In this document: piece after piece, positions 15,041-53,723 of the stretch | Position numbering within the stretch: position 1 is the first letter of the stretch | Layout of the letters: each line of letters opens with the position of its first letter | NCBI GenBank assembly: GCA_038211855.1 | Contig: JBBQVE010000005.1 | Location: 33-64,032, forward strand | Direction of reading: 5' to 3' | From: Candidatus Saccharimonadales bacterium | GTDB lineage: Bacteria; Patescibacteriota; Saccharimonadia; Saccharimonadales; SZUA-47 | Length of the DNA stretch: 64,000 nucleotides | Program-made: the position numbers and the translations under genes | Notes under the pieces: generated by a model | What the model saw: the letters and a program-made list of their open reading frames with translations, nothing else | Databases searched by the model: none | Told to the model about the DNA's origin: nothing

Positions 15041-15085
15041 TCCCCTTAGTGTAACAAACAAAGAACTTTACGTAGAAAAATAAAA

Positions 15086-15114
15086 TTGACAAATAACAAA
15101 GCTTATGTTAATAA
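15086..15114 (+). promoter_or_regulatory. consensus promoter cassette A (TTGACA-17 nt-TGT-TAATAA)
   Basis: TTGACA at 15086-15091 and the -10 at 15109-15114 with an upstream TGn. 25/30 nt are identical to the cassette at 52610-52639. Confidence 0.7.
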
Positions 15115-15140
15115 TATATATGTACTTAATAAAAACAAAC

Positions 15141-16484
15141 ATGCCAGAAACACTTGCACCACCACCTGTCGAAGTTGTTGCCTTACCACCTATGGTAGAG
15201 GCTTTTTCCGTTGTACCCCCAAGCAAAGAGCTAGAAACGCGTATCGAAACGCGAGGACTAGATCGGATTCTCACGGATGGCGGCACGATAGCAGGCTTAG
15301 CAGGTATCGAAATCGAGCCCGTGCTGGATGATGTAAAAACTCCGGCATTATTTCCATCGTCTCAGAGCCTGAAAAGCTTACTGGAAGACCCAGATTCACA
15401 TCTGGCACCAAGCCAGTTTATCGTTATAGAGGGAAGTAGTCATGAGCCGGCTGACGGTGTTATTAACACCAGCACGCCCACGAATGAGCTAACGCAAGAC
15501 GAATTAAAACAAAAATATATTACTGATACTTTGGGTGCAAACAAGGTATGGTGGGAACATCGCCGTTTTGGTGCCGCCGACCAACCGCTGAGTCGAGCCA
15601 AAACGGTGCAAGTTGAAGGCAATGCCCAAGAAGGTGCAGGCGCGCTAGACATCCTTGAATTCTTGCCTGAGGCCGAGCAGTTATCGCCATCTGAAATGTC
15701 CGCAGTCGTGAAAACGATTGAATTTATCGATCAAATGAGTGGTGGCGGCGTCTTTGTTGATCCTTCATCAAGACGACTGATATTTGGATCTGACAGCCAA
15801 CTGAAAACAGATACTTCTGATGTGTATGGCGCGGCTGGCAGCTCGGGCGTCGAAATCAATATGAATAAGATTCGCACAGAAGCCGCTAAATTTGGCGATG
15901 TCCCAGAGCATATCTTGGCGCAGGTATTAGTGCACGAGATTCTTGGTCATCAGATGGAACAATTTGTTGAAAATGGCCAAACTGGCAAACAGTTTGAACG
16001 TGCTTTTGACTACTCCACAGAAAAAGTAGATAGCATCGTGCACAAAGATCTACATGCCAATATTACACCAAAAGCCAGTGATGCGCCGGCCACAGCACCA
16101 GGCAATGTATACGGATCGAAGGACGCTGCCGAAGATTTGGCGGTTACTGCTGAAGGTACCACGCAGGTCATGACCGGCACCAGCGAAATGAATAATCCAA
16201 ACTTACAGGTGAATCGCGACACCTACCGTGAGGAGCTTCTCCTGAAATTCTTGAATGAAGTCGCCGCCAAAGCGCAGAGTGACGCTTTAGACGGACAAGG
16301 TGTTGGGACGCCACTAAAATATGAAGTTGATAAAAATGGTAAAGCTGTCGGTGTCGAATCTGCCCGTCCGGTCACGACTACAGAAATCGTTCCAATTGCT
16401 TACATGAAAAAGGAAGTCACTAAATTGCTCGAAAAAGGTAATAAAGAAACGTTCGTCTATAAAAAGAAAAGTTCGAGGGGTTAA
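15141..16484 (+). CDS. orphan acidic protein with HExxH zincin-like motif
   Basis: 447-aa ORF from ATG 15141 (ORF track 15105). No signal peptide or TM helix. VLVHEILGHQME contains HExxH. Pro/Ala/Glu-rich N-terminus. Confidence 0.6.
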   Translation: MPETLAPPPVEVVALPPMVEAFSVVPPSKELETRIETRGLDRILTDGGTIAGLAGIEIEPVLDDVKTPALFPSSQSLKSLLEDPDSHLAPSQFIVIEGSSHEPADGVINTSTPTNELTQDELKQKYITDTLGANKVWWEHRRFGAADQPLSRAKTVQVEGNAQEGAGALDILEFLPEAEQLSPSEMSAVVKTIEFIDQMSGGGVFVDPSSRRLIFGSDSQLKTDTSDVYGAAGSSGVEINMNKIRTEAAKFGDVPEHILAQVLVHEILGHQMEQFVENGQTGKQFERAFDYSTEKVDSIVHKDLHANITPKASDAPATAPGNVYGSKDAAEDLAVTAEGTTQVMTGTSEMNNPNLQVNRDTYREELLLKFLNEVAAKAQSDALDGQGVGTPLKYEVDKNGKAVGVESARPVTTTEIVPIAYMKKEVTKLLEKGNKETFVYKKKSSRG

Positions 16485-16490
16485 ATAAAA

Positions 16491-17540
16491 CTATTCACCA
16501 GCGGCGAGAATTTCGTGCTCGGCTTTTTGCAATTCTTCGATGAGGTCGTCAATCTGACCGGCCATGGCACCTGGAATATTGCTCCGCGAATAGCCAATGC
16601 GGTGATCGGTAATGCGGTCCTGTGGGAAGTTATAGGTACGGATTTTTTCGCTGCGGTCGCCCGAGCCAATCAGTTTCTGTCGTTGAGCACTCATTTTGGC
16701 TTGTTCTGATTCGATTTGGGCCTGCAACAGCCGGGAACGCAGTACACCCATGGCTTTGGCTTTGTTCTTGGTCTGTGATTTTTCATCCTGCTGCGTCACA
16801 ACCACTCCTGTTGGAATGTGCGTGATACGTACGGCGCTATCGGTGGTGTTGACTGACTGGCCGCCATGGCCACTGGCGTGATATACGTCAATGCGTAGGT
16901 CGGATGAGTTGATTTCGATGTCGGCTTCTTCGGCTTCGGGCAGCACCGCCACAGTAATCGTGCTGGTATGAATGCGGCCTTGGCTTTCGGTTGCAGGCAC
17001 GCGCTGGACGCGGTGGACGCCGGCTTCAAGGTGGAAGGTCTTGTAGGCATCAATGCCACGGACTTCAAAGACGATTTCTTTGAAGCCGCCGACTTCGCTG
17101 GGGCTTTCGCTGATCAGTTCAACTTTGAAGGAGTTCGTTTCAGCGTATTTGACGTAGGCCTTGTAAAGTTCGGCCACAAACAAGCTGGCCTCGTCGCCAC
17201 CAGCACCTGCCCGCATTTCGATGATACAGTTCTTGGCATCGTTGGGGTCCTTCGGCATCAGTGCATCCTGCAAGGCCTGCTGAGTAGTTTCAAGGGCGGC
17301 GCGGACTTCTTCAAGCTCCATCGCAGCAAGTTCGGCTAATTCGCCGCCGGCATTGACGAGCTCAATGGCTTCGGCTTCTTGCTTTTTGTATTTAGCGAGA
17401 TCATCAAAATGCTTGACGATATCTGTTAACTCGCTGGCGCGTTTGGCGGTCTGCGGGTAGTCTTTGCGGCTATAGACATCAGGATCCTGCAGTTTTACCT
17501 GCAGTTCGGCCAGTTCTTTTCTGTAGGTATCTGGATTCAT
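16491..17540 (-). CDS. prfA: peptide chain release factor 1
   Basis: PAT tripeptide (RVPATESQGRIHTS) and GGQ motif (SGHGGQSVNTTDSAVRITHIPTG). Confidence 0.97.
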   Translation of the reverse strand: MNPDTYRKELAELQVKLQDPDVYSRKDYPQTAKRASELTDIVKHFDDLAKYKKQEAEAIELVNAGGELAELAAMELEEVRAALETTQQALQDALMPKDPNDAKNCIIEMRAGAGGDEASLFVAELYKAYVKYAETNSFKVELISESPSEVGGFKEIVFEVRGIDAYKTFHLEAGVHRVQRVPATESQGRIHTSTITVAVLPEAEEADIEINSSDLRIDVYHASGHGGQSVNTTDSAVRITHIPTGVVVTQQDEKSQTKNKAKAMGVLRSRLLQAQIESEQAKMSAQRQKLIGSGDRSEKIRTYNFPQDRITDHRIGYSRSNIPGAMAGQIDDLIEELQKAEHEILAAGE

Positions 17541-17578
17541 AGTGGTATCCCTTTACTGATAGTGTAGCGCAAAAACAA

Positions 17579-17605
17579 AAACCGCCCGAAAAATCAGAGC
17601 GGTTT
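17579..17605 (-). terminator. possible intrinsic terminator after rpmE
   Basis: 7-bp stem (AAACCGC / GCGGTTT) with a 13-nt loop, followed on the minus strand by UUUUGUUUUUG. The large loop makes it weak. Confidence 0.4.
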
Positions 17606-17619
17606 ATGAGGCGGAGTAG

Positions 17620-17961
17620 CTAGTTCTGTTTGAGGTTGCCGATTTTGGCAGGGGCTTCTTTTTCGGTGCGTTCTGCTTTTGCGGGAGCTTTAACGTGCGC
17701 GGCTTTGGCAGCGGCAGCAGCCTTGCGGCGCTTTTCGAACTTATCAACGCGACCTTCAATGTCGACCAGTTTTTCTTGGCCGGTAAAGAACGGGTGGCTG
17801 GTGCTAGAAATGTGCACTTTTACGAGCGGATACTCGTTGCCGTCAGTCCATTTGGTGGTGTCTTCACTCATAACCGTTGAACGGGTGAGGAATTTTTCGT
17901 TGTTGTTGAGATCTTCAAAGACCACAAAACGATAGTTGTCGGGGTGAATAGCTGTTTTCAT
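17620..17961 (-). CDS. rpmE: 50S ribosomal protein L31, type B, with Lys/Ala-rich C-terminal extension
   Basis: [10 protein letters not shown]...[16 protein letters not shown]. No CxxC zinc motif. The 35-aa tail is [22 protein letters not shown]. Confidence 0.92.
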
Positions 17962-18004
17962 AATTCCGTTTATATTACCACATCTGTTAGCCGGTGGTCA
18001 ACTC

Positions 18005-19288
18005 CTATGGCCGCGTCGGTGGTGTCAGAATCTTCGAGCCGGTAAAACTATTATTCGGATCAGCAAACGGTTGTTTGAGAACCGTACCGTCGCCTAACTG
18101 GCCACCTTGGCAGTTCAACATCCCGTGTATACAGGTATTTGTCCACTTTGTCAAGATGGCCGGATCCCATGCACCCAACCAGTCGCTGTGAAAAGTCGAA
18201 CCATTCGGGTACACGGGCATACTCGGCATCCGATCGGACGATAAATACCAGCTGGATGAAGGCCCGTCGGCTGCGGCATCTGTGAACCAAATCCCCAGTT
18301 CGATCGTCGGTAGATTTACTGCCACTGTTCCGTCTGACTGCTTGACACCGAACCCAACGGGGCACTCCGGAAAATTGTGACCAACATAGGCAGCATAAGC
18401 AAGATGTGAGCGATGATCAGCACTATCTAAGTCGTGTCCATCCCAGCATGGCGGAAAAGCTACATGCACTCCTACGCGCTCACCGGCCGGGCACGTTGGG
18501 ATAGTATTTTGCTTTACCTGCGTCGTCTCGCAGTACCAATCAAAGTGGCGAGTGCTGTTATCAGCCCCGGCAGTGAGGTTGTAACCGGCAATCATACGAA
18601 GGCCCGCTGGAAGTTCTAAGACAGAATGAATCACCGATTGGGATAGGGTATTCTCACCCTTGTAATAGACGCTGATAAAGTCGGGAACTATGACATTGTT
18701 TGATTGATTAAAAACGGCAGGGAACCAATAGCCGGTGCGGTTGAGTGGACCACCCTGACAGGTGCCATCGCCCGAAGTGCGCAGAGATTGATACGTGCTA
18801 TTGGCATCAGTCAAGCTGTTTCCGAAAAACATATGCAAATGTGCCGATGCGCCAGACTGACCGGGGTACACGATCGGATCGTCGTAGCTTAAGTGCGAGT
18901 AGCCACAAATAAGCCGAAAATTACCGGTCGGTTCATTCGCAGTAGAGGCCGGAATGGTCCCGCCACTCACCAAATACTGGCTGGAATCAAAATTACTGGC
19001 GATAGCGGGAATAGAACCAGCCTGAGGGTACTCGCAGTTGGGCGGTGTGCCGACTTCAAAGATGGGGCAGGTGTTGGTGCTGGAATTCGCTGCGAAGCTT
19101 ATGTAGTGCCCATCAGAAGCAGAAGAATCGACGCCATCCACTGCGCCATTAGTTTTTGTACCCGTTTCTGGTTCGATAGAATTTGTGTTGGTAGCAGCAT
19201 GAGAAAAAGTCAGGATAAGCGTGCCGACAACTCCAAATACCAGAACAGCAACAAACCCAACAATGCTTCGTAGATGTACCTTTCGCAT
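18005..19288 (-). CDS. secreted DUF1996-like protein
   Basis: Start at MRKVHLRS plus a signal-anchor (ORF track start 19333 is a TTG). It carries the same IEPETG...ASDGHYISF...GTPPNC leader module as ORF 68..1003. The core DPIVYPGQSGASAHLHMFFGN resembles DUF1996 (by memory). Confidence 0.6.
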   Translation of the reverse strand: MRKVHLRSIVGFVAVLVFGVVGTLILTFSHAATNTNSIEPETGTKTNGAVDGVDSSASDGHYISFAANSSTNTCPIFEVGTPPNCEYPQAGSIPAIASNFDSSQYLVSGGTIPASTANEPTGNFRLICGYSHLSYDDPIVYPGQSGASAHLHMFFGNSLTDANSTYQSLRTSGDGTCQGGPLNRTGYWFPAVFNQSNNVIVPDFISVYYKGENTLSQSVIHSVLELPAGLRMIAGYNLTAGADNSTRHFDWYCETTQVKQNTIPTCPAGERVGVHVAFPPCWDGHDLDSADHRSHLAYAAYVGHNFPECPVGFGVKQSDGTVAVNLPTIELGIWFTDAAADGPSSSWYLSSDRMPSMPVYPNGSTFHSDWLGAWDPAILTKWTNTCIHGMLNCQGGQLGDGTVLKQPFADPNNSFTGSKILTPPTRP

Positions 19289-19343
19289 TTGTATGTACAT
19301 TACCATAATTGGTGACCGGATTGGATGTATCAAATGTACGTAG

Positions 19344-19372
19344 TTGCTACGAAGATTGATATCTGTTAGAAT
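19344..19372 (+). promoter_or_regulatory. rpsB promoter (TTGCTA-17 nt-TGT-TAGAAT)
   Basis: -35 at 19344-19349 and an extended -10 (TGT TAGAAT) at 19364-19372. This leaves a leader of about 100 nt before ATG 19478. Confidence 0.6.
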
Positions 19373-19477
19373 AATAGGGAAATTAATTAAGCAGTACGGG
19401 GCAAAATCCTCCTAACCAGCACCTTGTCAGGACTGGAAGGGCTAGCACCTGTACGAAGAAGAAGGATTTATGACACC

Positions 19478-20293
19478 ATGGCTACAGACGTAGACATCAA
19501 AGAACTATTAGCGGCCGGCGCGCACTTCGGTCACAAGACCAGTCGTTGGCACCCAAAAATGGCGCAATACATTCACTCCAAGCGGAATGGCAGCCATATT
19601 ATTGACCTGACAAAGACGGTTGAAGGCCTGGAAGACGCCATGGCGTTCCTCACCAAGACTGCTGCCGCTGGCAAACAGGTTTTGCTGGTATCAACAAAGC
19701 GCCAGGCTGCTGAGATGGTCCAAGAGACCGCCGAAGCCCTGAACATGCCATTTGTTGTAAACCGCTGGCTTGGTGGCATGATGACCAACCAGAAGACCAT
19801 TTCTGGCCGTATCAAGCACCTTAAAAGCCTTGAAGAGCGCATGGCCAACGGCGAACTGGCTGCTAAATACAACAAACTCGAAGTCCAACGCTTCCAAGAA
19901 GAAATCGAAGCGATGAACGTCCTCTACGGTGGCATCAAGAACATGGCAGCCAAAGTTGGCGCTGTTTTTGTCATCGACATTCTTAATGACAAGAACGCTG
20001 TTTCCGAATCCAAAGTCCTTGGTATTCCAGTCGTTGCTATTGTCGACACCAACGTTGATCCAAGCGACATCCAGTACCCGATTCCTGCCAACGATGACGC
20101 CGCGAAGGCCGTCAAACTCATTTTGAGCTACATCCAGAGCGCCATTGCTGAAGGCCAGGGAACCGCCACCAAGAATAATGAAGTTGCTGCTGCCGAATCC
20201 GAGAAAAAGGCCGTCGCCGAAGCAAAAGCAAAAGATCTCAAAGACATGACTAAAGCAGAAGATGTGGCTGCACCAGCAAAAGGAAACGGCTAG
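19478..20293 (+). CDS. rpsB: 30S ribosomal protein S2
   Basis: MATDVDIKELLAAGAHFGHKTSRWHPKM. SD AAGGA lies 11 nt upstream. The ORF track start 19424 is an upstream extension. Confidence 0.97.
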   Translation: MATDVDIKELLAAGAHFGHKTSRWHPKMAQYIHSKRNGSHIIDLTKTVEGLEDAMAFLTKTAAAGKQVLLVSTKRQAAEMVQETAEALNMPFVVNRWLGGMMTNQKTISGRIKHLKSLEERMANGELAAKYNKLEVQRFQEEIEAMNVLYGGIKNMAAKVGAVFVIDILNDKNAVSESKVLGIPVVAIVDTNVDPSDIQYPIPANDDAAKAVKLILSYIQSAIAEGQGTATKNNEVAAAESEKKAVAEAKAKDLKDMTKAEDVAAPAKGNG

Positions 20294-20307
20294 TCCGAAG
20301 ACCATAT

Positions 20308-20553
20308 ATGAGTGGTGATGAAAGATTACTAGGTGTTGCGCTCAGCAAGTTTAATGACCCGCGGTTCAGGCAGGAAAGAGCTACACAATTTCCAGGGACA
20401 CGACCTTTATTTGACGCACGTGCAGCAGCATATGAAGCTATGGTTGCGCTAGAGGCATTCGGACCTGAAATTGGAACGTGTAGTAATGAAGATCAAGTTA
20501 CATTAAAGTTTTTAGGAGATGCAGTCGTGCAACTCACTGGAAGTGGAGAATAA
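20308..20553 (+). CDS. hypothetical 81-aa protein inserted between rpsB and tsf
   Basis: ATG ORF filling the otherwise unexplained 260-bp rpsB-tsf spacer. Its stop TAA lies 1 nt before the tsf ATG, and the tsf SD (GGAGAA) is inside its 3' end. No SD of its own and no recognisable family. Confidence 0.4.
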   Translation: MSGDERLLGVALSKFNDPRFRQERATQFPGTRPLFDARAAAYEAMVALEAFGPEIGTCSNEDQVTLKFLGDAVVQLTGSGE

Positions 20554-20554
20554 T

Positions 20555-21154
20555 ATGGCAATCGATATTGATACAATCAAAAGACTTAAAGAATTAACAG
20601 GGGTTGGTTTGACCGACGCCAAGGCCGCATTAACGGATGCCGGTGGCGATTTTGACAAAGCCCTCCAAGCCATGCGTAAAAAAGGTCAGACCAAAGCCGA
20701 CAAGCGCGGCGAACGCGAAGCTCGTGCTGGCGTCATTGGCTCATATGTCCACGACAACCGTATCGGTGTTTTAGTCGAAGTAAACTGTGAGACCGATTTT
20801 GTTGCGCGCAACGAGAAGTTCACTGACCTCGTCAAAGACATAACTTTGCATATTGCTGCCAGCGCTCCAGAATACGTTAGCGAAGAAGACATTTCCCTCG
20901 AAGCAAAAGAGAAAATCGCGACTGAATTTACCGAAAAAGTCATCGCCGAAGGCAAGCCAGAAAAAATCGTTTCAAATATCGTCGAAGGCATGCTCAAGAA
21001 GTATTTTGCCGAGCGTTGTTTGCTCGATCAACCATTCGTGAAGAATCCCGATATGACCGTTGGCGACCTCGTCAAAGAGGCCAATGCCATCCTCGGTGAG
21101 AACATCGTTGTGAAACGCTTTAGCCGCCTGCAACTCGGCGAAGTAACCGCCTAA
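20555..21154 (+). CDS. tsf: translation elongation factor Ts (short form)
   Basis: UBA-like N-terminus IKRLKELTGVGLTDAKAALTDAGGDFDKALQAMRKKG. Start ATG 20555 (ORF track 20519). Confidence 0.95.
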   Translation: MAIDIDTIKRLKELTGVGLTDAKAALTDAGGDFDKALQAMRKKGQTKADKRGEREARAGVIGSYVHDNRIGVLVEVNCETDFVARNEKFTDLVKDITLHIAASAPEYVSEEDISLEAKEKIATEFTEKVIAEGKPEKIVSNIVEGMLKKYFAERCLLDQPFVKNPDMTVGDLVKEANAILGENIVVKRFSRLQLGEVTA

Positions 21155-21190
21155 GCTTGTTACAATACAATAAGTAACAAAGGAGCCAGC

Positions 21191-21754
21191 GTGAATCCAC
21201 AAGACAGCGTAGGACAAGCAGATGACAAGTTCAAAGAACAGGTAACCCACTTTGAAGGCGAGCTCAAGAAGCTCCGTACCGGCCGCGCTCACGCCAGTAT
21301 GCTTGATGGCCTGATGGTTATGGCGTACGGTGTTTCGACGCCAATTATTCAGGTTGGTAACGTCAGTGCTCCCGAACCGCAGCTCCTCCAAATTACTCCT
21401 TTTGATCCGAGTAACATTCAGGCGATAGCGTCAGCAATCCGCGATAATCCTTCACTCGGACTCAACCCAAGCGACGATGGTCGCGTGATTCGCATTCCAG
21501 TTCCTGCACTTACCACTGAACGTCGCCAACAGATTGTAAAACAGCTGAGCGAAAAAGTTGAAGATTGTATGATCGCCATGCGTCAGACCCGTCATGACGC
21601 GCTTGATAAGATTGAAAAAGCCAAAAAGGATAAAGAAATCGGCGAAGACGACGCCAAGCGTCTACAAAAAGTTCTCGATGATTCCATGTCCAAGGCCAAA
21701 ATGGACGTCGATGCCAAATCCAAGTCTAAAGAACAAGAGATAATGACGGTCTAA
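21191..21754 (+). CDS. frr: ribosome recycling factor
   Basis: FEGELKKLRTGRAHASMLDGLMV...LTTERRQQIVKQ. GTG start with AAGGAG upstream. Confidence 0.95.
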   Translation: MNPQDSVGQADDKFKEQVTHFEGELKKLRTGRAHASMLDGLMVMAYGVSTPIIQVGNVSAPEPQLLQITPFDPSNIQAIASAIRDNPSLGLNPSDDGRVIRIPVPALTTERRQQIVKQLSEKVEDCMIAMRQTRHDALDKIEKAKKDKEIGEDDAKRLQKVLDDSMSKAKMDVDAKSKSKEQEIMTV

Positions 21755-22444: not shown

Positions 22445-22471
22445 CTCCCCAGTGCTGTATACTTAAGAGGA

Positions 22472-24409: not shown

Positions 24410-24452
24410 ATCACATCTGTTAACAGGGAGCGTTTTCCTGTAAACTAAGCGT

Positions 24453-26557: not shown

Positions 26558-26559
26558 TT

Positions 26560-26587: not shown

Positions 26588-26593
26588 AATTCA

Positions 26594-27005: not shown

Positions 27006-27027
27006 CTACTGTAAAATAAGAGGTACT

Positions 27028-43909: not shown

Positions 43910-43933
43910 TCGCCACAACGATAAGGAATCAAA

Positions 43934-45208: not shown

Positions 45209-45235
45209 ACCTAGGCAAGGTATACTGAGTAATGT

Positions 45236-46321: not shown

Positions 46322-46356
46322 TCCTTTAAGTGAAGCGCTTTTGCTATACTGTTTAT

Positions 46357-47034
46357 GTGATATTACTGGACAGGGTAACCAAGACGTACAACCGCAAGGG
46401 AACAGCACTCGAGCGCATCTCGCTTCATGTCGAGCCAAAAGAGTTCGTGATCATCGTCGGCGCCAGCGGTGCTGGCAAAAGTACGCTTCTCAAACTGTTA
46501 ACTCGCGAAGAAAAGCCAACCAGCGGCAAGATTATTGTTGGCGGCATTGATTACGAGCGGCTCAAAGACCGTGATATCCCGTATTTACGTCGTAAGATTG
46601 GCGTGGTTTTTCAGGATTTCAAACTGCTACCAGCCAAAACTGTTTTTGAAAATGTTTCTTTTGCACTCGAGATTATCGGATTGTCTAATCGAGAAATCCG
46701 TCACACTGTGCCAAAAGTACTTGATCTGGTTGGCCTCAAAGGCAAAGAAGACGCCTATCCTGGTGAGCTTTCAGGTGGAGAGCGCCAGCGCGTAGCGATT
46801 GCCCGAGCTGTAGTTCGTCAGCCAAAAATCTTGATTGCCGATGAGCCAACAGGGAATCTCGATCCAAAACATGCTTGGGATGTGATTCGCGTACTTGAGA
46901 AAATTAACAGATACGGTACGACCGTTTTGCTCACCACGCATAACCAAGACATCGTCAATAAGCTCAAACGCCGCGTCGTCACCATCTCCGACGGTCACAT
47001 AGTGAACGACCAAGCCGGAGGCGGTTACAAGTAA
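46357..47034 (+). CDS. ftsE: cell-division ABC ATPase FtsE
   Basis: Walker A GASGAGKSTLLK, signature LSGGERQRVAIARA, Walker B ILIADEPT. The start is probably GTG 46357, 6 nt after TATACT; the ORF track start 46330 is the alternative. Confidence 0.93.
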   Translation: MILLDRVTKTYNRKGTALERISLHVEPKEFVIIVGASGAGKSTLLKLLTREEKPTSGKIIVGGIDYERLKDRDIPYLRRKIGVVFQDFKLLPAKTVFENVSFALEIIGLSNREIRHTVPKVLDLVGLKGKEDAYPGELSGGERQRVAIARAVVRQPKILIADEPTGNLDPKHAWDVIRVLEKINRYGTTVLLTTHNQDIVNKLKRRVVTISDGHIVNDQAGGGYK

Positions 47035-47981
47035 TGAACCATAAGATCATTACGTTCTGGCGGATTGTAAAAGCCGGCGGCAAGAACTTCCTGCGCAATA
47101 ACTGGCTGTCCGTTGCTGCTACTGCCGTCATGATGGTGGCGTTGACGATCATGTTGTCGGCTGTCGTTCTGAACGTCACGACGCGTAATGCCATCAAAGA
47201 ACTTTCTAAGCAAATCAAAGTCACGATTTATTTGAGAGAGGGCGCCAGCGACGACAAGCGCAACGGCCTGATTGCGCGCCTTAAGGCTGAGCCAAGTATT
47301 GCCGATGTGAATTATGTGAACCGCGCCGAAGCCACGCGACGGTTCAAAACAACCCAAAATCCTGACGATAAAGCTTTTATTGAGCAAGCCTTGGCATTGA
47401 CTGGGTCGAATACATTACCAGAGTCACTTGAAGTCTCACTGACGGATCTATCGCATAGCGGTACGGTCGTTTCTATCGCCAAAGAAAAAAACTATAAAGA
47501 TGTCGTCGATGATGTTTCAGTCGGCAAAAACGATGTCGCCAAAGAAACAATTGCGCGGGCGACGAGTGCCCAAAAATACATCGTGCGCGGTAGTGTTTTT
47601 GCGGCTATTTTGTTCGCTGCTGTCTCTGTCCTGATTATCTTTAACACCATCCGTATGGCCATCTTTACGCGTAGTGAAGAAATTAGAATTATGAAGCTAA
47701 TCGGTGCTACGCCGAGCTATATCCGCGGTCCGTTCCTGATCGAGTCATGTATCTACGGTGTCATCGCCGGAGTGCTAGCAAACACGGCGGTGTACGGCGC
47801 GGTTTTGAGCCTCGGACCAAAGGTACAGAATCAGGCTGAGTTTTCTGCAACTTACACGTTCTTCACGACAACTTGGGTGATGGCAGCTATGTTACTTGGA
47901 GCAATCGTCACTGGCATGATCGTCGGCATTGTTTCGAGCCTCCTCGCCATGAACAAATACTTGAAATTGAAGCACTGGTAA
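47034..47981 (+). CDS. ftsX: cell-division permease-like protein FtsX
   Basis: N-terminal TM helix, a periplasmic domain, and a C-terminal 3-TM FtsX fold (RSEEIRIMKLIGAT). Confidence 0.93.
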   Translation: MNHKIITFWRIVKAGGKNFLRNNWLSVAATAVMMVALTIMLSAVVLNVTTRNAIKELSKQIKVTIYLREGASDDKRNGLIARLKAEPSIADVNYVNRAEATRRFKTTQNPDDKAFIEQALALTGSNTLPESLEVSLTDLSHSGTVVSIAKEKNYKDVVDDVSVGKNDVAKETIARATSAQKYIVRGSVFAAILFAAVSVLIIFNTIRMAIFTRSEEIRIMKLIGATPSYIRGPFLIESCIYGVIAGVLANTAVYGAVLSLGPKVQNQAEFSATYTFFTTTWVMAAMLLGAIVTGMIVGIVSSLLAMNKYLKLKHW

Positions 47982-48012
47982 AGAGTCATTTCGCTAGTGG
48001 TATACTAGTTAA

Positions 48013-49125
48013 GTGAAGATAATTCGAAGCCTTCTCCGTACCAGCAGCTTTTTGATTTTGAGCGCTGTATTGGTCGTGATGAGTTTGCACCCGGTCAATG
48101 TGAAGGCGGCGACTTCTGCTGAAATCCGTGCGCAAGTAAGTGTTTTGCAGGATCAGATTAATGCTGGCAAGGCCCAAGCTGTAGCGCTTGCCGCACAGGC
48201 GGATTCATTACAGAAAGCTGTTAATGCACTCAACATCCAGATAAATGACGCCAACGCCCAGATTCAGCAGACGGCCCTTAAAATCGCCGACCTCGAAGCC
48301 AAACTCAAGCAAACCCAGATAGATTTGGATACCCAGACCGGTCTCCTCAAAGACAGCATGGTAGCGCTCTACAAGAAGGGCGGAGCATCAACCGTTGAAC
48401 TGCTGATCGGCAGTGACAGTTTTTCGCAGTTCGTTGACAGCCAAGAGTACTTTACGCGCCTGAAAACCGCCATTCAGGCCTCAACCGAAAAGATTATTAC
48501 CCTCAAACAGCAGCTCCAAGCTCAAGCAGACCAACAACAGGTACTGCTAGATCAAGAACAACAGCAAAAAGCCAGTGTTGAGGCCAATAAAACTGATCGG
48601 CAGAATCTGCTCGACCAAACACAAGGCGACGAAGCTCGATATAAAGCTTTAGTTGCCAATCTGACTGCTCAGCAAGCCGATGCCAACAAACGATTGTTTG
48701 CCCAAATCCAACTCGAAAGCGGCAACGGCAATAATGGCGGCTACCCCTATAATAATTATGCCTTCAGCATGACACCGGGCGGCTGTGGCCCCGGCGAAGG
48801 TCCAGACCGATGGGAATACTGTACTCGTCAATGCGTGAGTTATGCAGCTTGGGCCGTGGAGCGCTCTGGTCGCACCGCACCAGTGGGGTACGGCAATGCT
48901 AAGAACTGGGTCAATGAGGCGCCGGCTGCTTGGCAGCATAATAATCCGAAAGTTGGCGATGTTGGTGTGGCCACAGGTGGTGGTTTTGGTCATGTAGCGT
49001 ACATAGAAGCAATTTATGGTGACGGCACAATGCGTATCAGCCAATATAACGCGCAGCTTACCGGTCGCTATAGCGAAGCAACCGTCTCTACAGGGTTATT
49101 TGATAAGTACATCACGTTCCCCTAA
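48013..49125 (+). CDS. secreted coiled-coil + CHAP-domain peptidoglycan hydrolase (PcsB-like)
   Basis: Signal peptide, about 220 aa of Gln/Ala/Leu-rich coiled coil, and a C-terminal CHAP domain (CTRQCVSYAAWAV...GHVAYIE). It lies directly after ftsEX. Confidence 0.88.
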   Translation: MKIIRSLLRTSSFLILSAVLVVMSLHPVNVKAATSAEIRAQVSVLQDQINAGKAQAVALAAQADSLQKAVNALNIQINDANAQIQQTALKIADLEAKLKQTQIDLDTQTGLLKDSMVALYKKGGASTVELLIGSDSFSQFVDSQEYFTRLKTAIQASTEKIITLKQQLQAQADQQQVLLDQEQQQKASVEANKTDRQNLLDQTQGDEARYKALVANLTAQQADANKRLFAQIQLESGNGNNGGYPYNNYAFSMTPGGCGPGEGPDRWEYCTRQCVSYAAWAVERSGRTAPVGYGNAKNWVNEAPAAWQHNNPKVGDVGVATGGGFGHVAYIEAIYGDGTMRISQYNAQLTGRYSEATVSTGLFDKYITFP

Positions 49126-49191
49126 ATCTATTCTCAGATTTCGGCAAGGGAGGGTTCTATCATGTACAATGAAGCAAATGAGGGGTTTTAA

Positions 49192-50418
49192 GTGTCACAA
49201 AATTTAGAAGATTTTAGTCCAGTAAAATTAAAAAACAAAAAGCTTCAGAAGGGGGCTGCCGTCGCGTCAGTCGCTATTGTTATAGTCCTTATATTTGGGA
49301 GTGGGTGGGCATTTGGCAAGGGAAACATCACGCTTTCGGGCTTGAAGAATGGTAATCTCGCCGCCAACACATCAAGCAGCCTGAATTACGCCAGCGTAAA
49401 TGATCTCTATAATCAGCTAAAAGATAATTACGACGGCACACTCGACAACACAAAAGTCCTTGATGGCCTCAAATCAGGCTTATCAAGTTCCGCAGGCGAT
49501 CCCTATACCGAATATTTCAACGCCAAAGACAGTAAGGCATTTCAGGATCAACTTGATGGCAACTTTGAAGGCATAGGAGCCGAGCTCGGCACCGATTCCA
49601 ACAAGAACGTTCAGATTATCTCACCAATTGCCGGTAGTCCGGCCGAAAAAGCTGGACTGCAGCCAAAAGACATCATTGCCAAAATCGACGGAAAATCGAC
49701 AGAAGGCTTGACGGTTGATGCGGCAGTTGGACTGATTCGTGGCAAAGCTGGAACCGATGTAAAGCTGGAGCTGGTTCGAGCCGGAGCGTTAGTTGATGTC
49801 ACCATTACGCGTGCGCAAATCACCGTTCCAAGTGTCACCTGGAAAGAAGATGGCACGATTGGTATCCTGACGGTGAGCCGATTTGGTGAAGACACACCTT
49901 CACTTGTTGCGAAGGCCGCCACCGAATTTTCCGACAAGAAAGTGACTGGCATCGTGTTAGATCTGCGCAGTGACCCAGGTGGGTTGCTCGATGCTGCGGT
50001 AAAACTGAGTAGTCAGTGGCTTGATGAAGGCAAAACTGTCTTGCTTGAAAAACGCGGTGGCAAAGTGGAGCATACCTATACTGCACTCGGCAATCCGTCG
50101 TTCAAAGGCATCAAAACGGTAGCACTTATCAACGCCGGTAGTGCCAGCGCCAGCGAAATCACAGCCGGTGCATTGCACGACAACAAAGCGGCAACACTCA
50201 TGGGCGTGAAGTCTTATGGCAAGGGAAGCGTTCAGCAGGTACTCACTTTGGCTGGTGGCGGCACCCTCAAAGTCACGATTGCCCGCTGGTACACGCCGAA
50301 CGACATAAATATCGATAAACAAGGTATTAGCCCAGACAAAGAAGTCAAACAAGCCGACGAAGATGCAAAGAACGGCGTCGACACTCAGCTGCAAGCAGCT
50401 CTCAATAATCTCCGTTAA
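49192..50418 (+). CDS. S41 C-terminal processing peptidase (CtpA/Prc-like) with PDZ
   Basis: TM anchor, PDZ (SPAEKAGLQPKDII), DLRSDPGGLL, and GSASASEI (catalytic Ser). GTG start with GAGGGG SD. Confidence 0.9.
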   Translation: MSQNLEDFSPVKLKNKKLQKGAAVASVAIVIVLIFGSGWAFGKGNITLSGLKNGNLAANTSSSLNYASVNDLYNQLKDNYDGTLDNTKVLDGLKSGLSSSAGDPYTEYFNAKDSKAFQDQLDGNFEGIGAELGTDSNKNVQIISPIAGSPAEKAGLQPKDIIAKIDGKSTEGLTVDAAVGLIRGKAGTDVKLELVRAGALVDVTITRAQITVPSVTWKEDGTIGILTVSRFGEDTPSLVAKAATEFSDKKVTGIVLDLRSDPGGLLDAAVKLSSQWLDEGKTVLLEKRGGKVEHTYTALGNPSFKGIKTVALINAGSASASEITAGALHDNKAATLMGVKSYGKGSVQQVLTLAGGGTLKVTIARWYTPNDINIDKQGISPDKEVKQADEDAKNGVDTQLQAALNNLR

Positions 50419-50444
50419 ATGCGTCAGACAAGAGGAGATAAGGC

Positions 50445-50473
50445 TTGCGCTTAGGCACTTTCTGAGCTATGAT
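50445..50473 (+). promoter_or_regulatory. pyrG promoter (TTGCGC-17 nt-TATGAT)
   Basis: Hexamers at 50445-50450 and 50468-50473. SD AAGAGG lies before GTG 50498. Confidence 0.5.
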
Positions 50474-50497
50474 ATATGTTAATTAAGAGGTAACCAC

Positions 50498-52108
50498 GTG
50501 GCACAAGAGCGACGAGCTCCTAAATATGTGTTTGTCACTGGCGGCGTACTCTCAGGCGTCGGCAAGGGTATTACCGCCTCCTCAATTGGTAGAATTCTGA
50601 AAGCCCGTGGGCTCAAAGTCACCATCCAAAAATGTGATCCGTATCTGAACGTTGATGCCGGCACGCTCAATCCAGCCGAACATGGCGAATGTTTTGTGAC
50701 GTTCGATGGTGCCGAAACCGATCTTGATCTCGGTCACTACGAGCGCTTCCTCGACATCGAACTACCGCGCGAAGGCAGCCTCATGAGCGGTCGACTCTTT
50801 CTGAACGTTATCAACGATGAGCGGAACGGTAAGTATATTGGCAAAACGGTGCAGGTTATTCCTCACCTTACGAATGCCATCCAAGAACATATCATGGGGC
50901 TCGCCAATGATTCTGATGTGCACATCGTAGAAATTGGTGGCACTGTCGGTGATTACGAAAGCCCCGCGTTCATTGAAGCGATACGCGAACTCGGTATGAA
51001 AGTCGGCCGTGAAAATTGTGCATATATCCATGTCGTCTATATCCCATACTTAGGCGCCAGCGGAGAATTTAAGACGAAACCGGCCCAAAACGCTGTTCGT
51101 GACCTTCGATCAGTCGGGATCGTTCCAGATATTCTCGTCGCACGTAGCGAAGACATGCCACCACAGGCAGTCGTAAATAAACTGAGTTTATTCAGTGGTG
51201 TCGATCCGAAAGCGATCGTTCTGCTGCCGAACGCCAGCACGATTTATCAGGTGCCAATAACACTCGAGGAACAAGGTATAGGCACCGTGCTGACCGATAT
51301 ATTCGGCATGCCACAGAGTGATGGCGACCTAACAGAGTGGAAGGCAATGCTGGCACGTGCCATGGATAAAGATGCACCGCTCGTTCGCATCGGTATCGTA
51401 GCCAAATACATGAACAACCAGGATACCTACATGTCGGTGTTTGAGGCGCTGAAAAGCGCGGCATGGTCCCGTGGCAAACAGATAGATATCGTGTGGGTAG
51501 ATGCCGAAAAACTGGCAGAAGAAGCAGCAACTGCCGAAGCATTCCTCAAAGGCCTCGACGGCATCGTCGTACCTGGAGGCTTTGGCGCACGTGCCATCGA
51601 AGGTAAAATCAAAGCCGCTATGTATGCTCTGCAGAATAAACTTCCGTATCTTGGATTGTGCCTTGGGTTGCAGATTTCGGTGATTGCGGCCGCGCGACTC
51701 GCTGGTTTAACTGATGCCAATTCAACCGAATTTGATCCTGAAACGAAGAATCCGGTGATTGCCACAATGGATGAACAGGTTGGCAAAGAAAACACCGGAG
51801 GCACGATGCGCCTTGGTAACTACAGGTGTGACCTTGAGCCCGGTTCGCTGGCCGAAAAAGTCTACGGCACCAAAGAGATCGTGGAACGCCACCGTCATCG
51901 CTATGAGTGCAACAACGCCTACAAAGACCAATACGCCGCGTGGGGTCTCAAGGCGAGCGGCATGTCACCAGACGGCAAGCTTGTCGAAATGATTGAAGGC
52001 ACCGATCATCCATTCTTACTGGGCAGCCAGGCGCACCCGGAGTTTAAATCACGTCCCACTGTTCCACACCCAATGTTCGTCGGTCTCATTGACGCAATCA
52101 GCAAATAA
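50498..52108 (+). CDS. pyrG: CTP synthase
   Basis: KYVFVTGGVLSGVGKGI N-terminus, a C-terminal glutamine amidotransferase domain (GLCLGLQ, HRHRYE). Confidence 0.98.
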   Translation: MAQERRAPKYVFVTGGVLSGVGKGITASSIGRILKARGLKVTIQKCDPYLNVDAGTLNPAEHGECFVTFDGAETDLDLGHYERFLDIELPREGSLMSGRLFLNVINDERNGKYIGKTVQVIPHLTNAIQEHIMGLANDSDVHIVEIGGTVGDYESPAFIEAIRELGMKVGRENCAYIHVVYIPYLGASGEFKTKPAQNAVRDLRSVGIVPDILVARSEDMPPQAVVNKLSLFSGVDPKAIVLLPNASTIYQVPITLEEQGIGTVLTDIFGMPQSDGDLTEWKAMLARAMDKDAPLVRIGIVAKYMNNQDTYMSVFEALKSAAWSRGKQIDIVWVDAEKLAEEAATAEAFLKGLDGIVVPGGFGARAIEGKIKAAMYALQNKLPYLGLCLGLQISVIAAARLAGLTDANSTEFDPETKNPVIATMDEQVGKENTGGTMRLGNYRCDLEPGSLAEKVYGTKEIVERHRHRYECNNAYKDQYAAWGLKASGMSPDGKLVEMIEGTDHPFLLGSQAHPEFKSRPTVPHPMFVGLIDAISK

Positions 52109-52124
52109 CGTTAGGATAAGTATT

Positions 52125-52538
52125 ATGGATCCATCAGTTGTTCAACCAACCCCACCAGCCGCCAACGCTATGAAAAAGATTCTTCTTGTAGAGGACGATG
52201 ATGCACTCGCGAGTGTCTATACCACCCGTCTCGATGCTGAAGGTTTTAGTATTCGACGTGTCCCGAATGGCGAAGAAGCACTGCAGGCCACTCTTGAATA
52301 CAAACCAGATCTGATTTTGCTCGATGTTATGATGCCAAAAGTCAGCGGCTTCGATGTCCTCGACATCCTGCGCAACACGCCCGATACTGCTCACATAAAA
52401 GTGATCATGCTCACCGCTCTCAGTCAAGAAAGCGACAAACAGCGCGCCATGGATCTCGGTGTTGATGACTATTTAGTAAAATCCCAAGTTGTTATTGCTG
52501 ACGTCGTCGACAAAATCCGTCAGCACCTCGACATTTAA
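52125..52538 (+). CDS. single-domain response regulator (CheY-like receiver)
   Basis: KILLVEDDD, DLILLDVMMP (canonical phospho-Asp), VIMLTAL, and DDYLVKS. The ORF track start 51993 overlaps pyrG and is rejected. Confidence 0.88.
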   Translation: MDPSVVQPTPPAANAMKKILLVEDDDALASVYTTRLDAEGFSIRRVPNGEEALQATLEYKPDLILLDVMMPKVSGFDVLDILRNTPDTAHIKVIMLTALSQESDKQRAMDLGVDDYLVKSQVVIADVVDKIRQHLDI

Positions 52539-52562
52539 TTATTTTTTGCCCGACCGATTGTG

Positions 52563-52588
52563 GAGCGGCCCAAGAAGGCCGTTTTTTC
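52563..52588 (+). terminator. rho-independent terminator after the receiver gene
   Basis: Stem CGGCC / GGCCG (extendable with G-U and A-U pairs), loop CAAGAA, then TTTTTT. Confidence 0.6.
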
Positions 52589-52610
52589 TACTATAAACGC
52601 TAACACTATA

Positions 52611-52639
52611 TTGACAAATAATAAAACTTATGCTAATGT
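52611..52639 (+). promoter_or_regulatory. consensus promoter cassette B (TTGACA-17 nt-TGC-TAATGT)
   Basis: TTGACA at 52611-52616 and the -10 at 52634-52639 with an upstream TGn. It is a near copy of the cassette at 15085-15114, and the downstream 5'UTR is also similar. Confidence 0.7.
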
Positions 52640-52664
52640 TATATCTGTTAATTAAAAAGCTACT

Positions 52665-53723
52665 ATGTCAGCAGATATTCCCACACCAGCACCAATCGAA
52701 GCCCAGCAAACAGTAGCCCCAGTTGAGGCAACTTTTAACGATCCAAATGCAATTACCCAGCCTCGACTCACACCTGCAGAGCGTCTTGGGTTGGTCGACG
52801 GATTATTCGATGTCACCAGAGGAATTGGCGATAACGCGCGCACTGAACAGGGTTGGCACATCCAGCACGTCGGTATGGCTACAGACAATACTACAGGACA
52901 AGAACGTGAAGAAGTCGTAATTGCCAGAGCGCAGGTTAACGCTGATGGTAGTCCAATCCTAGACGATGATGGGAACGCTATAGATGATGTTAAGTTGATG
53001 TGGGCCGACGTTCTTCTAGATGCACAAGAAAATACAGCCGAAGCACCTAATACAGCCGAAGCACAGGCAATACAGGCCGTTGAAAACGTTGGCTCAGCAG
53101 TTACTTTTAACGAGGTACAGGTCGAACCAGTAAGCGTTGAAACACTCGTTGAACAGCAGGGTGCCGAAGCACCCGAAACACTTCAGGGCGAAGCGCTCAA
53201 AGAAGCCAAGGGACGTTTTGAAGATCTGTTTTCAATTATAAATGACATTGCAAGCAACCCAAATCGTCCAGACCGCGAGCAAATTATCACACAGGCAATA
53301 GAGCTGACTACTCGCATGCCCGCAGAGCTTAAACAAGCATACAATGGCGCGCTGATCGGTCTAATAAGAGAACCGGCACAATTAAGGCATTTGTATGACG
53401 GCCAAATCCGATCACAGCTCGCTGCAGTGCAAGGAATTGATACTCGAGTTTTGAATATGATTGATGGCATCGTTCAAAAAAGAATAGGCTTTCTTCACGC
53501 TGCAGAAAATGACGCCGATCCTGGCTACGCACAACAACTCATTAGACTAATTAATACTGATGCACTGGCTGCAGCCCAACTGACAGAATCGGGAGCAAGC
53601 GATAATGAACATGCAGCAAAAACAGCTGCTGTATTTTTGCGAGGTATTGCCGCTTCAACGTCTACGGGTCAAGGCAGGGCTCAAATAAGAGATCGCTTAC
53701 AAGCTGATTTATTTGGCAAATAG
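52665..53723 (+). CDS. orphan acidic protein (352 aa), unknown function
   Basis: No signal peptide or TM helix. Pro/Ala/Glu-rich N-terminus followed by an Ala/Gln/Leu-rich helical C-terminal half. No recognisable family. Confidence 0.6.
   Translation: MSADIPTPAPIEAQQTVAPVEATFNDPNAITQPRLTPAERLGLVDGLFDVTRGIGDNARTEQGWHIQHVGMATDNTTGQEREEVVIARAQVNADGSPILDDDGNAIDDVKLMWADVLLDAQENTAEAPNTAEAQAIQAVENVGSAVTFNEVQVEPVSVETLVEQQGAEAPETLQGEALKEAKGRFEDLFSIINDIASNPNRPDREQIITQAIELTTRMPAELKQAYNGALIGLIREPAQLRHLYDGQIRSQLAAVQGIDTRVLNMIDGIVQKRIGFLHAAENDADPGYAQQLIRLINTDALAAAQLTESGASDNEHAAKTAAVFLRGIAASTSTGQGRAQIRDRLQADLFGK

Follow-up and report, generated by a model that had tools for sequence, protein, structure and literature searches.

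Gram-positive sigma-A promoters reportedly include a group with a '-16 region', reading TRTGnTATAAT and described by Voskuil and Chambliss in 1998, and Barne et al. are said to have described extended -10 (TGn) promoters in E. coli in 1997. Putative mobile promoters were reportedly recognised in 2012 by Matus-Garcia, Nijveen and van Passel, under the term 'promoter propagation in prokaryotes'. In respect to translation, Bacteroidetes make use of A-rich initiation regions that have no Shine-Dalgarno sequence. Leaderless or Shine-Dalgarno-independent initiation is found, for example, in mycobacteria (PMC3898074, PMC4633059). In Nanosynbacter lyticus TM7x and Southlakia epibionticum, functional promoters of tuf and rpsJ are built from TTTACA or TTGATA, a 17-nt spacer and TATAAT (PMC10633639, Table S4).

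We have analysed a stretch of 64,000 nucleotides (64 kb) from a Candidatus Saccharimonadales bacterium, hereafter the window, in which two genes, A and B, are preceded by closely similar predicted promoters. We consider it likely that the two sites are copies of a recurrent, Saccharibacteria-specific, sigma-70-type extended -10 module which is strong and serves accessory genes; as a promoter class, it is real and, it appears, undescribed until now.

Organization of the two predicted promoters

Promoter A has a perfect TTGACA as -35 hexamer (15086–15091, forward strand, as all elements of both promoters), with the AT-rich stretch ATAAAA just 5' of it (15080–15085) and the conserved 17-nt spacer AATAACAAAGCTTATGT downstream (15092–15108), which contains a TRTG-type -16/TGn element (TATGT). 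Its -10 region (15109–15115) can be read as TAATAA at a 17-nt spacing, without the final T, or as AATAAT at 18 nt, a combination that scores 11/12. The discriminator TATATATGT and an A-rich leader without Shine-Dalgarno sequence (15116–15140) then lead to gene A (15141–16484, forward strand). Promoter B comprises the AT-rich stretch ACTATA (52605–52610), a perfect TTGACA (52611–52616), the conserved 17-nt spacer AATAATAAAACTTATGC with its TRTG/TGn element TATGC (52617–52633), the -10 hexamer TAATGT (52634–52639) and the discriminator TATATCTGT with an A-rich leader, again without Shine-Dalgarno sequence (52640–52664), ahead of gene B (52665–53723, forward strand). Transcription is predicted to start near G15122 in A and near G52647 in B, giving leaders of ~19 and ~18 nt, respectively. 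Back to back with promoter A, a putative promoter-like TTGTCA-16-TAAAGT on the reverse strand (15065–15092) could drive prmC, which has an AAGGGGA Shine-Dalgarno sequence and its ATG at 15040.

Both sites have the features of extended -10 sigma-70 promoters, namely TTGACA, a spacer of 17 ± 1 nt, a -10 hexamer with A in second and T in sixth place (TAATGT in B, AATAAT at 18 nt in A), TGn, an intergenic position facing an ORF and recurrence in relatives. The perfect -35, the 17-nt spacer and the TGn element had been pointed out in a preliminary description of this DNA and are indeed present in both. However, the -10 hexamers are non-consensus, TAATGT matching TATAAT at 3/6 positions only; since both are sub-consensus, the 'very strong' promoters announced there are an extrapolation.

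The two sites have ATTGACAAATAAYAAARCTTATG in common (15085–15107 and 52610–52632), to which the 64 kb hold exactly 2 matches at ≤3 mismatches, and none of 100 dinucleotide shuffles holds a match. From ATTGACA through the -10 hexamer, a direct count agrees with the 25 identical bases out of 30 reported previously, and the coordinates were right. Sites A and B agree with a 29-mer consensus at 27/29 and 28/29 positions, respectively; no other site of the window exceeds 19/29, which is the level of the shuffles. The likeness extends from about -38 to +3, forming a block of ~45 bases (~50 aligned columns) with unrelated flanks. The first nine nucleotides after the -10 are identical at 8/9, a value that only 0.6% of other copy pairs reach, whereas the remaining leader is identical at 14/25, which 6% of copy pairs equal. 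The leaders had been described as alike: this is upheld for the absence of a Shine-Dalgarno sequence and for these nine positions, the rest of the resemblance being compositional.

Recurrence of the block in other genomes

An exact 22-mer scan covering 185,579 species genomes returned 45 loci. Recurrence elsewhere, on which the preliminary description had staked its proposal, is clear: 32 of these loci lie in other Saccharibacteria/Patescibacteria species genomes, in each case with a same-strand ORF downstream in a fixed arrangement. By estimate, this group accounts for only a minor share of the species that were scanned. Exact copies are rare, with 1–2 per genome and in an estimated ~1% of the species of the phylum. 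The Saccharibacteria copies run on into ...GC-TAATAT, with C before the -10 in 28/33, and the hexamer counts over 33 copies (T31 A31 A22 T23 A22 T29) give TAATAT as the class consensus; the TAATGT of promoter B is a variant found in 3/34 copies, the window's own two being counted among the 34. Conservation extends to positions outside the search pattern: just 5' of the -35, where the class shows an ATA pattern, 30/33 copies have A at -6 and 24/33 have A at -1, and 25/33 have T nine bases 3' of the -10; these counts refer to loci picked by a pattern that fixes 20 positions, and the edges of the class are fuzzy.

The 22-mer is also present in Firmicutes-type genomes, 5' of tRNA-like and rRNA-like sequences, and in 14 low-GC viral contigs, which hold it as TTGACAAATAAAAAAnCTTATGnTATAAT within a family reading AAAAAACTTA-TTGACAAATAAAAAAnCTTATGnTATAAT-AAATACATAAGATAAAGAAAGG. 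These occurrences would fit a reading by chance or as a generic optimum, in which the likeness between A and B is uninformative: in AT-rich DNA, every very strong promoter of the sigma-A type would end up with TTGACA, TRTG and TATAAT and with an A-rich spacer. We regard this as quite improbable, given that the chance expectation in the window is none, that the 22-mer is strongly enriched in one small phylum, and that the copies of Saccharibacteria are distinct in their -10 (TAATAT, not TATAAT) and in Y/G spacer positions. Moreover, strong Saccharibacteria housekeeping promoters fail to converge on the block. Indeed, the contrast with housekeeping promoters drawn previously holds: those of the window are mainly -10-reliant, 19 of 61 gene starts having a -10 hexamer 5–10 nt upstream and no -35 element by eye, and the tuf and rpsJ spacers are unrelated.

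The block can stay constant while the proteins behind it change: across 4 species, the members of an unrelated small-protein family are only 33–45% identical and the flanks of their promoters have diverged, yet 31 nt of the block show no change. Alignment of such promoters shows a spacer that is, as judged from its bases, under purifying selection. Known sigma-70 contacts do not account for the constancy of spacer bases 1–10, and thus more than RNA polymerase may be involved. One possibility, which we hold to be rather unlikely, is a trans-acting protein (a second sigma-70-family sigma, an activator or a repressor) that recognises the whole block, in which case A and B would belong, with the remaining downstream genes, to a regulon for accessory or host-interaction functions under common control. 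Such a factor would agree with a spacer that is invariant in orthologous promoters whose proteins are saturated with change, with the absence of the block from the tuf and rpsJ promoters, with the non-housekeeping nature of the downstream genes, and with a coupling of the spacer to the -10 variant, TAA... being present in 21/34 copies versus 2/15 other perfect TTGACA-17-TAnnnT promoters at the same loci (Fisher p=0.002). It is at odds with the lack of any dyad or direct repeat common to the A and B blocks, whose palindromes are no more than trivial AT ones (the AAGCTT of A reads AAACTT in B), with a motif seen solely in register with the -35 and the -10, and with the quite different spacers of A-family orthologues.

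Leaders and translation start

The same-strand ORF follows the -10 at a distance of ≤10 nt in 11 copies; 9 copies have a distance of 25–29 nt, 9 have one of 30–60 nt and 3 have one of >60 nt. An ATG lies 6–10 nt past the -10, our criterion for leaderless messages, in 11/32 copies, and many members of the class are predicted either to be leaderless or to have a ~20-nt A-rich leader without Shine-Dalgarno sequence; the short leaders noticed in the preliminary description are typical of the class, beyond A and B. For A and B themselves, leaderless mRNAs were considered and rejected. The ATG of B lies 25 nt past the -10 and cannot be moved upstream because of an in-frame TAA at 52653. Gene A has an in-frame ATG at 15120, 5 nt past the -10, but the conserved M-x-E-T-L N-termini of its relatives place the start at 15141. 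No Rfam family was found in the window that would indicate a structured RNA leader, and the minimum free energies of -3.6 (A) and -2.3 kcal/mol (B) are weaker than those of shuffles: both initiation regions are unstructured and have no Shine-Dalgarno sequence.

Genes and proteins downstream

The genes behind the block copies are mutually unrelated and most have no Pfam family; they include Fic, LuxI/FeeM-like N-acyl synthase and zincin-like proteins, small membrane proteins and peptides. The lengths reported previously for A (447 aa) and B (352 aa) are right, neither has a signal peptide or a transmembrane helix (maximum 19-aa hydropathy 1.17 and 1.01) and both are acidic (pI 4.8 and 4.5, respectively). 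That neither has a recognisable family is correct as far as Pfam and NCBIfam are concerned. However, A has a family of its own, with ~40 distant Saccharibacteria clusters, and the term 'orphan' does not apply to it; the fast-evolving B is a near-orphan, with a single known orthologue family (P0042).

The A family is characterized by invariant HExLGH, IDQxSGG and EDLAT motifs. Across 34 of its sequences H265, E266 and H270 (HExxH) are invariant or nearly so and E331-D332, 66 residues downstream, is conserved. In view of the invariant HExLGH motif, protein A is probably a zincin-like metallopeptidase, a putative assignment based on family alignments, and some members give sub-threshold matches to Peptidase_M49 and Zincin_1 (E ~0.02). 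The HExxH is shared with zincins, whereas a significant Pfam, NCBIfam or PDB match is lacking: the profile search of PDB gave a best E of 0.51, to a glycerate kinase. The AF2 single-sequence model (pLDDT 35) was unusable.

The preliminary description had proposed a related N-terminus and a single dispersed protein family, which would imply that A and B are diverged paralogues, duplicated together with promoter and N-terminus. Both are acidic and have Pro/Ala/Glu-rich N-terminal regions (modelled with low confidence), but the best BLASTP match between them has E=3.7 and the N-terminal pairing E=19. Further, in hhalign the A family reaches a probability of 0.2% against the B family, and likewise against the 489-aa protein discussed below, the A-family profile gives no match to B, and the window holds no further paralogues. 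Paralogy, to which we give next to no credence, is effectively refuted at the sequence level. These comparisons show A and B, on the alignments available, as non-homologous proteins sharing one promoter module, and only the promoter class is dispersed.

The neighbours had been correctly named, being prmC and prfA for A and a receiver-only response regulator and rpmA for B. The two genes had been described as single-gene islands; the position of B is not random, as its orthologue in a related genome (L057) occupies the same syntenic slot, receiver gene to rpmA. The orthologue is 34% identical, compared with 62–81% for the flanking genes, and its promoter is a 23/29 copy of the consensus; a neighbouring 489-aa gene in the same genome has an exact copy. 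A-family genes are not syntenic; in the window, A is found between prfA and prmC, on the opposite strand. The A orthologues keep the architecture TTGAC(A)-17-(TGn)TAnnnT and a ~25-nt A-rich leader without Shine-Dalgarno sequence, but the exact spacer of promoter A is absent from them, and hence it was gained by the lineage of the window or lost by the others.

This distribution bears on a reading that we find doubtful, in which recombination or gene conversion places copies of a ready-made ~45-bp promoter cassette before new or relocated accessory genes, and the A/B likeness would result from common descent of the DNA and not from common regulation. In its favour are the presence of the block before non-homologous genes of one genome (A and B in the window; in L057, the B orthologue and its 489-aa neighbour), the agreement of A and B past the core, the lack of synteny of A-family genes and the absence of the exact spacer from A orthologues. 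However, the likeness between genomes appears to equal that within the genome of the window: promoter B is identical to that of the L057 489-aa gene over 27 nt from TTGACA on (for promoter A, 19/25 bases match that promoter downstream). Copying is also insufficient to keep the block across genomes of 36–53% GC, which needs selection, and neither flanking repeats nor mobile-element signatures were found.

Proposed mode of action

In the module reading that we favour, an AT-rich stretch would be followed by TTGACA, a 17-nt spacer preferring AATAAYAAAGCTTATGC and ending in TRTG/TGn, a TAATAT-type -10 and an AT-rich discriminator, with transcription starting ~7 nt past the -10. Promoter activity, strength, start site and translation mode are all predicted. 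The housekeeping sigma-70-family holoenzyme would read the module, resulting in strong single-gene transcription, and the mRNA would be leaderless or, as in A and B, carry an unstructured ~19-nt A-rich leader; as this leader has no Shine-Dalgarno sequence, translation would start without the corresponding pairing. The module would serve lineage-specific, fast-evolving accessory genes and not housekeeping genes.

Comparison with known systems

Compared with leaderless systems, A and B are not strictly leaderless, and a class with a fixed-length leader of ~20 nt is unusual. The tuf and rpsJ promoters belong to the same phylum and have sigma-70-type hexamer spacing, rpsJ also having TGn; in contrast to the module, their spacers are unrelated and not A-rich, and their long leaders carry AAGGAG or AGGAG as Shine-Dalgarno sequence (PMC10633639). 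The promoters of the viral contigs share the 22-mer core (TTGACA, A-rich spacer, CTTATG) but differ in an upstream A-tract, TATAAT, a CTTATG/CATAAG inverted repeat at the -10, a leader bearing a Shine-Dalgarno sequence and other hosts. Like mobile promoters, A and B are near-identical promoters before non-homologous genes of one genome; unlike in them, conservation of the block spans many species of the phylum, and no link to mobile elements was found. Finally, the -16 region and extended -10 promoters have in common with the module TTGACA, the 17-nt spacer, T-A-T-G-n abutting the -10 and the ORF-ward position, whereas in the module most of the spacer and several upstream positions are conserved as well, the preferred -10 is TAATAT and the genes served are accessory ones and not housekeeping genes of the tuf or rpsJ type.

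Two predicted promoter sites in the window

A search of the 64-kb window for ATTGACAAATAAYAAARCTTATG, allowing up to 3 mismatches, returned exactly two matches, at 15085 and 52610, where the preliminary description had reported near-identical promoters ahead of genes A and B, and 0 of 100 dinucleotide-preserving shuffles contained a match. Scored against the 29-nt class consensus TTGACAAATAAYAAARCTTATGCTAATAT the two sites reach 27/29 and 28/29, the next best site of the window being at 19/29, which corresponds to the shuffle level. Alignment of A and B evidences a single conserved block, from about 2 nt 5' of the -35 to about 9 nt 3' of the -10, outside which the promoter flanks are unrelated. 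The first 9 nt past the -10 are identical at 8 positions, a value reached by just 0.6% of pairs, and past the block the leaders agree at 14 of 25 positions, a level that 6% of other-copy pairs reach. The promoter prediction stands, with -10 hexamers which at both sites are less ideal than had been implied, that of B being TAATGT and that of A either TAATAA (17-nt spacing) or AATAAT (18 nt).

Other identities of the block were ruled out: an RNA element, as a scan of positions 1-64000 at Rfam gathering thresholds gave no RNA family (and no tRNA either) and the A and B leaders lack a stable fold; an operator with symmetry, as no dyad or direct repeat is common to A and B within the block; and a DNA-uptake sequence or dispersed repeat, as the 64 kb contain no more than two copies, each set in the fixed geometry of a promoter.

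The sole other perfect TTGACA-17-TAnnnT promoter of the window, at 63335-63376, has a TATAGT -10 and an unrelated spacer, and the gene that it precedes may be leaderless, since its ATG (MNKTKMFEF...) lies 10 nt past the -10. We have also noted that A and B are convergent with prfA and rpmA, with just 3-6 nt between stop codons (16484-16491 and 53723-53727); there is thus no space for a terminator 3' of either gene, and strongly transcribed mRNA would continue as antisense of prfA or rpmA. Bidirectional termination could occur at a hairpin inside the 3' end of B (53613-53629).

Recurrence of the block in other genomes

Failure to recur elsewhere had been named beforehand as what would speak against the proposal, and the motif does recur in other genomes, at 32 Saccharibacteria-type loci. 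The scan for TTGACAAATAANAAANCTTATG, which covered one genome per species in 185,579 species, gave 45 loci in total, 25 of which are labelled Saccharibacteria, Saccharimonadia or Saccharimonadales and 3 other Patescibacteria; 4 more have uninformative or doubtful labels but carry the full motif, and 2 of these have downstream genes with homologues in Saccharibacteria loci. Most of the other 13 are chance matches or promoters of Firmicutes type.

Conservation was counted over the 33 copies at the 32 Saccharibacteria-type loci, at positions left free by the search pattern. The base 5' of the -10 is C in 28 of 33 copies, the position 6 nt 5' of the -35 is A in 30/33 and that 9 nt 3' of the -10 is T in 25/33, while the -10 hexamer (TAATAT) gives T31 A31 A22 T23 A22 T29; the leader is G-poor and A/C-rich. 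All Saccharibacteria-type copies precede an ORF that is read in their own direction. The start codon lies at most 10 nt past the -10 in 11 copies, which are of a predicted leaderless type, and 25-29 nt past it in 9 copies (the group of A and B), which have an A-rich leader without a Shine-Dalgarno site; the interval is 30-60 nt in another 9, some of which show a Shine-Dalgarno site and a hairpin, and exceeds 60 nt in 3. Genomes have just 1-2 exact copies each, also where the contigs are 350-740 kb long, and partial copies were found at 25/29 and 23/29.

The genes 3' of the copies share no relationship with A or B, and for the most part none with one another. No Pfam family was found for 16 of the 20 tested, the other four matching a Fic protein, a PGDYG protein, a LuxI/FeeM-like N-acyl synthase and, weakly, a phosphoribosyltransferase; several encode small membrane proteins or peptides of 27-44 aa. 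At L015:1903+, L031:695-, L034:3235+ and L043:1462- (also L029), all loci of the genome scans, the leader carries, 3' of the promoter, a conserved hairpin (GTTGTTATAAAAATAAACAAC) as well as an AAGGAG Shine-Dalgarno site, the peptide being 29-44 aa long, starting M-x-K-P-K-K-I-V-V-K-Y-I, occurring in several species and adjoining a terminator and a tRNA-like sequence. A TATAAT variant at L007:2192- and L045:926- precedes a conserved acidic 27-aa peptide (MK..LAYEL.P..D....E.DD.L) and then a terminator-like hairpin. Three small-protein families of 58-139 aa (L006, L011, L017, L027, L036; L018, L038; L022, L026, L041) keep the exact promoter across species; several of their genes are leaderless, several of the proteins have hydrophobic stretches, and the members tested have no Pfam family.

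On a contig labelled Prolixibacteraceae, which may be mis-binned, L039 2374-3165 (minus strand) is a leaderless autoinducer-synthase/FeeM-like N-acyl amino acid synthase gene (Pfam E=3e-11) behind a full Saccharibacteria-type promoter; an acyl-signal synthase in this group would be of interest. A Fic/DOC-domain protein stands behind the promoter at L019 6116-6805, with a second copy (25/29) at L019 3875, 2 kb upstream. In the Saccharibacteria genome of L053 a CIRCE-like inverted repeat (GGCACTC...GAGTGCTA, about 730-775) overlaps a TTGACA-17-TATATT promoter 5' of an HSP20 gene.

A distinct class of predicted promoters

Within the motif loci, other TTGACA-17-TAnnnT promoters differ in the spacer, which is unrelated and in most cases ends ...TTTGC ahead of a TATAAT-like hexamer, and a TAA-initial -10 is coupled to the conserved spacer in 21/34 motif copies versus 2/15 other perfect promoters (p=0.002). 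In four species that share one small-membrane-protein family the 31-nt block AGTTGACAAATAACAAAGCTTATGCTATATT is invariant, with 20 of its positions already fixed by the search that found the loci, the proteins being 33-45% identical and the promoter flanks diverged. The spacer hence appears, from this family, to be under purifying selection. One explanation that remains for its conservation is that RNA polymerase itself prefers a certain sequence or DNA shape. That the block, over 29-45 bp, is recognised by a dedicated protein acting in trans, be it a second sigma of the sigma-70 family or a regulator bound at the promoter, and defines a Saccharibacteria-specific accessory-gene regulon, is improbable. 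Were it true, the downstream genes would be a true regulon, fast-evolving and leaderless or without a Shine-Dalgarno site, comprising zincin-like proteins, Fic, the N-acyl synthase, small membrane proteins and the 27-44 aa peptides, and could represent an expression programme of an epibiotic, host-interaction lifestyle.

The contrast that had been drawn with -10-only promoters of housekeeping genes is borne out in the window, where a TAnnnT hexamer ends 5-10 nt upstream of 19/61 gene starts versus about 4 at control offsets, often with TGn before it and with no -35 evident by eye (for example 8542-, 12141+, 17961-, 38688+, 39504+ and 48013+). Leaderless genes thus look common in this genome.

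Proteins A and B

Both proteins are acidic and devoid of hydrophobic segments, A (15141-16484) having 447 aa and a pI of 4.8 and B (52665-53723) 352 aa and a pI of 4.5. Neither gave a significant match in Pfam, NCBIfam or PHROGs, in which respect the initial statement of no recognisable family is borne out, and a word-indexed protein search returned each query only. An exhaustive HMMER search found some 40 cluster representatives related to A (25-35% identity, mostly 400-430 aa), so that the term orphan does not hold for A and is nearly correct for B, for which a single orthologue family was found.

In the A-family alignment H265-E266-x-L-G-H270, IDQxSGG and E331-D332-L-A-T are invariant or nearly so, and a few members have sub-threshold matches to Peptidase_M49 and Zincin_1. 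On account of the conserved HExLGH-type motifs and these matches we consider A a putative zincin-like protein; a PDB profile search with the family gave nothing significant, and the AlphaFold model was unusable (pLDDT 35 and 46 for A and B, each predicted as a single sequence without relatives). The 454-aa database model of A (P0043) starts at an in-frame ATG at 15120, just 5 nt past the -10; such a leaderless start is unlikely, as the conserved M-x-E-T-L N-termini of the relatives favour 15141, and P0043 is probably 7 codons too long. Neighbourhoods of the family differ between genomes, and in the window A lies between prfA and prmC, encoded on the other strand. A scan for family loci with a subset alignment gave only 3, from metagenomes. 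The orthologues keep the promoter architecture and the A-rich leader, with different spacers.

The proposal that A and B form one protein family with related N-termini fails on sequence comparison: the best BLASTP match has E = 3.7, the N-terminal pairing E=19, and profile-profile comparison of the two families gives a probability of 0.2%. By these measures A and B are not related, and their Pro/Ala/Glu-rich N-termini are a compositional likeness, not homology.

A local tblastn search found a B orthologue with 46% identity over 110 aa in L035, a locus of a related genome, and a profile search added one family only (P0042, 34% identical overall). The order in the related genome is S41 peptidase, pyrG, receiver, a 489-aa protein, a 69-aa product, the B orthologue, DUF998, rpmA and methyltransferase. 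Identity with the window is 62-81% for the neighbours and 34% for B, which together with the synteny indicates a fast-evolving gene at a conserved position rather than an inserted island.

The 489-aa protein (L057 3174-4643, equivalent to L035 770-2239, minus strand) is acidic, contains HEYTH (HExxH) and is encoded between the receiver gene and the B orthologue; profile comparison did not connect it with the A family (probability 0.2%). Its gene is missing from the corresponding position of the window and in L057 carries an exact copy of the 22-mer, the core of the block, as its promoter. This promoter equals that of B over 27 identical nt, both being the first after the receiver gene, and matches the downstream 25 nt of A at 19 positions. 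These likenesses fit either orthologous retention under selection or copying. That a ready-made promoter cassette has been propagated seems to us a rather unlikely explanation of the conserved spacer. Conceivably, B came under this promoter when the 489-aa gene was deleted; the intergenic flanks of the window and the related genome do not align.

Predicted function and significance

We consider it probable that the block is a sigma-70-family promoter with an extended -10, driving strong transcription of a single accessory gene, its activity, strength, start site and mode of translation being predicted from sequence. Predicted for the A and B mRNAs are a leader of about 19 nt, A-rich and unstructured, and translation that does not depend on Shine-Dalgarno pairing; the module would serve fast-evolving accessory genes. 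Export or effector roles for A and B are speculation.

The searchable literature contained no description of the block motif, no promoter consensus for Saccharibacteria or other Patescibacteria, and nothing relevant on Saccharibacteria promoters or leaderless transcripts. Current genetic systems use tuf and rpsJ promoters, whose strength is only 'predicted' (PMC10633639). The module described here, promoter plus leader, is short and highly conserved and might be of use as an expression part. Through it one can also flag lineage-specific, fast-evolving genes that reduced genomes appear to express strongly, and reach candidates for host interaction, among them the zincin-like family, Fic, the N-acyl synthase and the small membrane proteins and peptides. 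Moreover, it makes testable the cause of strong purifying selection on a promoter spacer, and translation start on leaderless or A-rich mRNAs without Shine-Dalgarno sites in this phylum.

Comparison with known promoters

The TM7x tuf and rpsJ and S. epibionticum tuf promoters, which work in cultured Saccharibacteria, read TTTACA or TTGATA-17-TATAAT (PMC10633639, Table S4) and differ from the block in having unrelated spacers and long leaders with Shine-Dalgarno sites (PMC10633639). Low-GC viral contigs share the 22-mer with the Saccharibacteria block, but have a TATAAT -10. Fourteen such contigs (L060-L073) carry a highly conserved common promoter, AAAAAACTTA-TTGACAAATAAAAAAnCTTATGnTATAAT-AAATACATAAGATAAAGAAAGG, in which a CTTATG/CATAAG inverted repeat flanks the -10 and resembles an operator. 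The 22-mer is found in Firmicutes-type genomes too, so that this promoter style is not unique to the Saccharibacteria phylum. A TRTG '-16 region' is known from Gram-positive sigma-A promoters, and the presence of the 22-mer outside the phylum fits this element. Taken together, we infer that the block is a member of a recurrent predicted promoter class, which would be distinct from the plain promoter consensus and have fuzzy edges.
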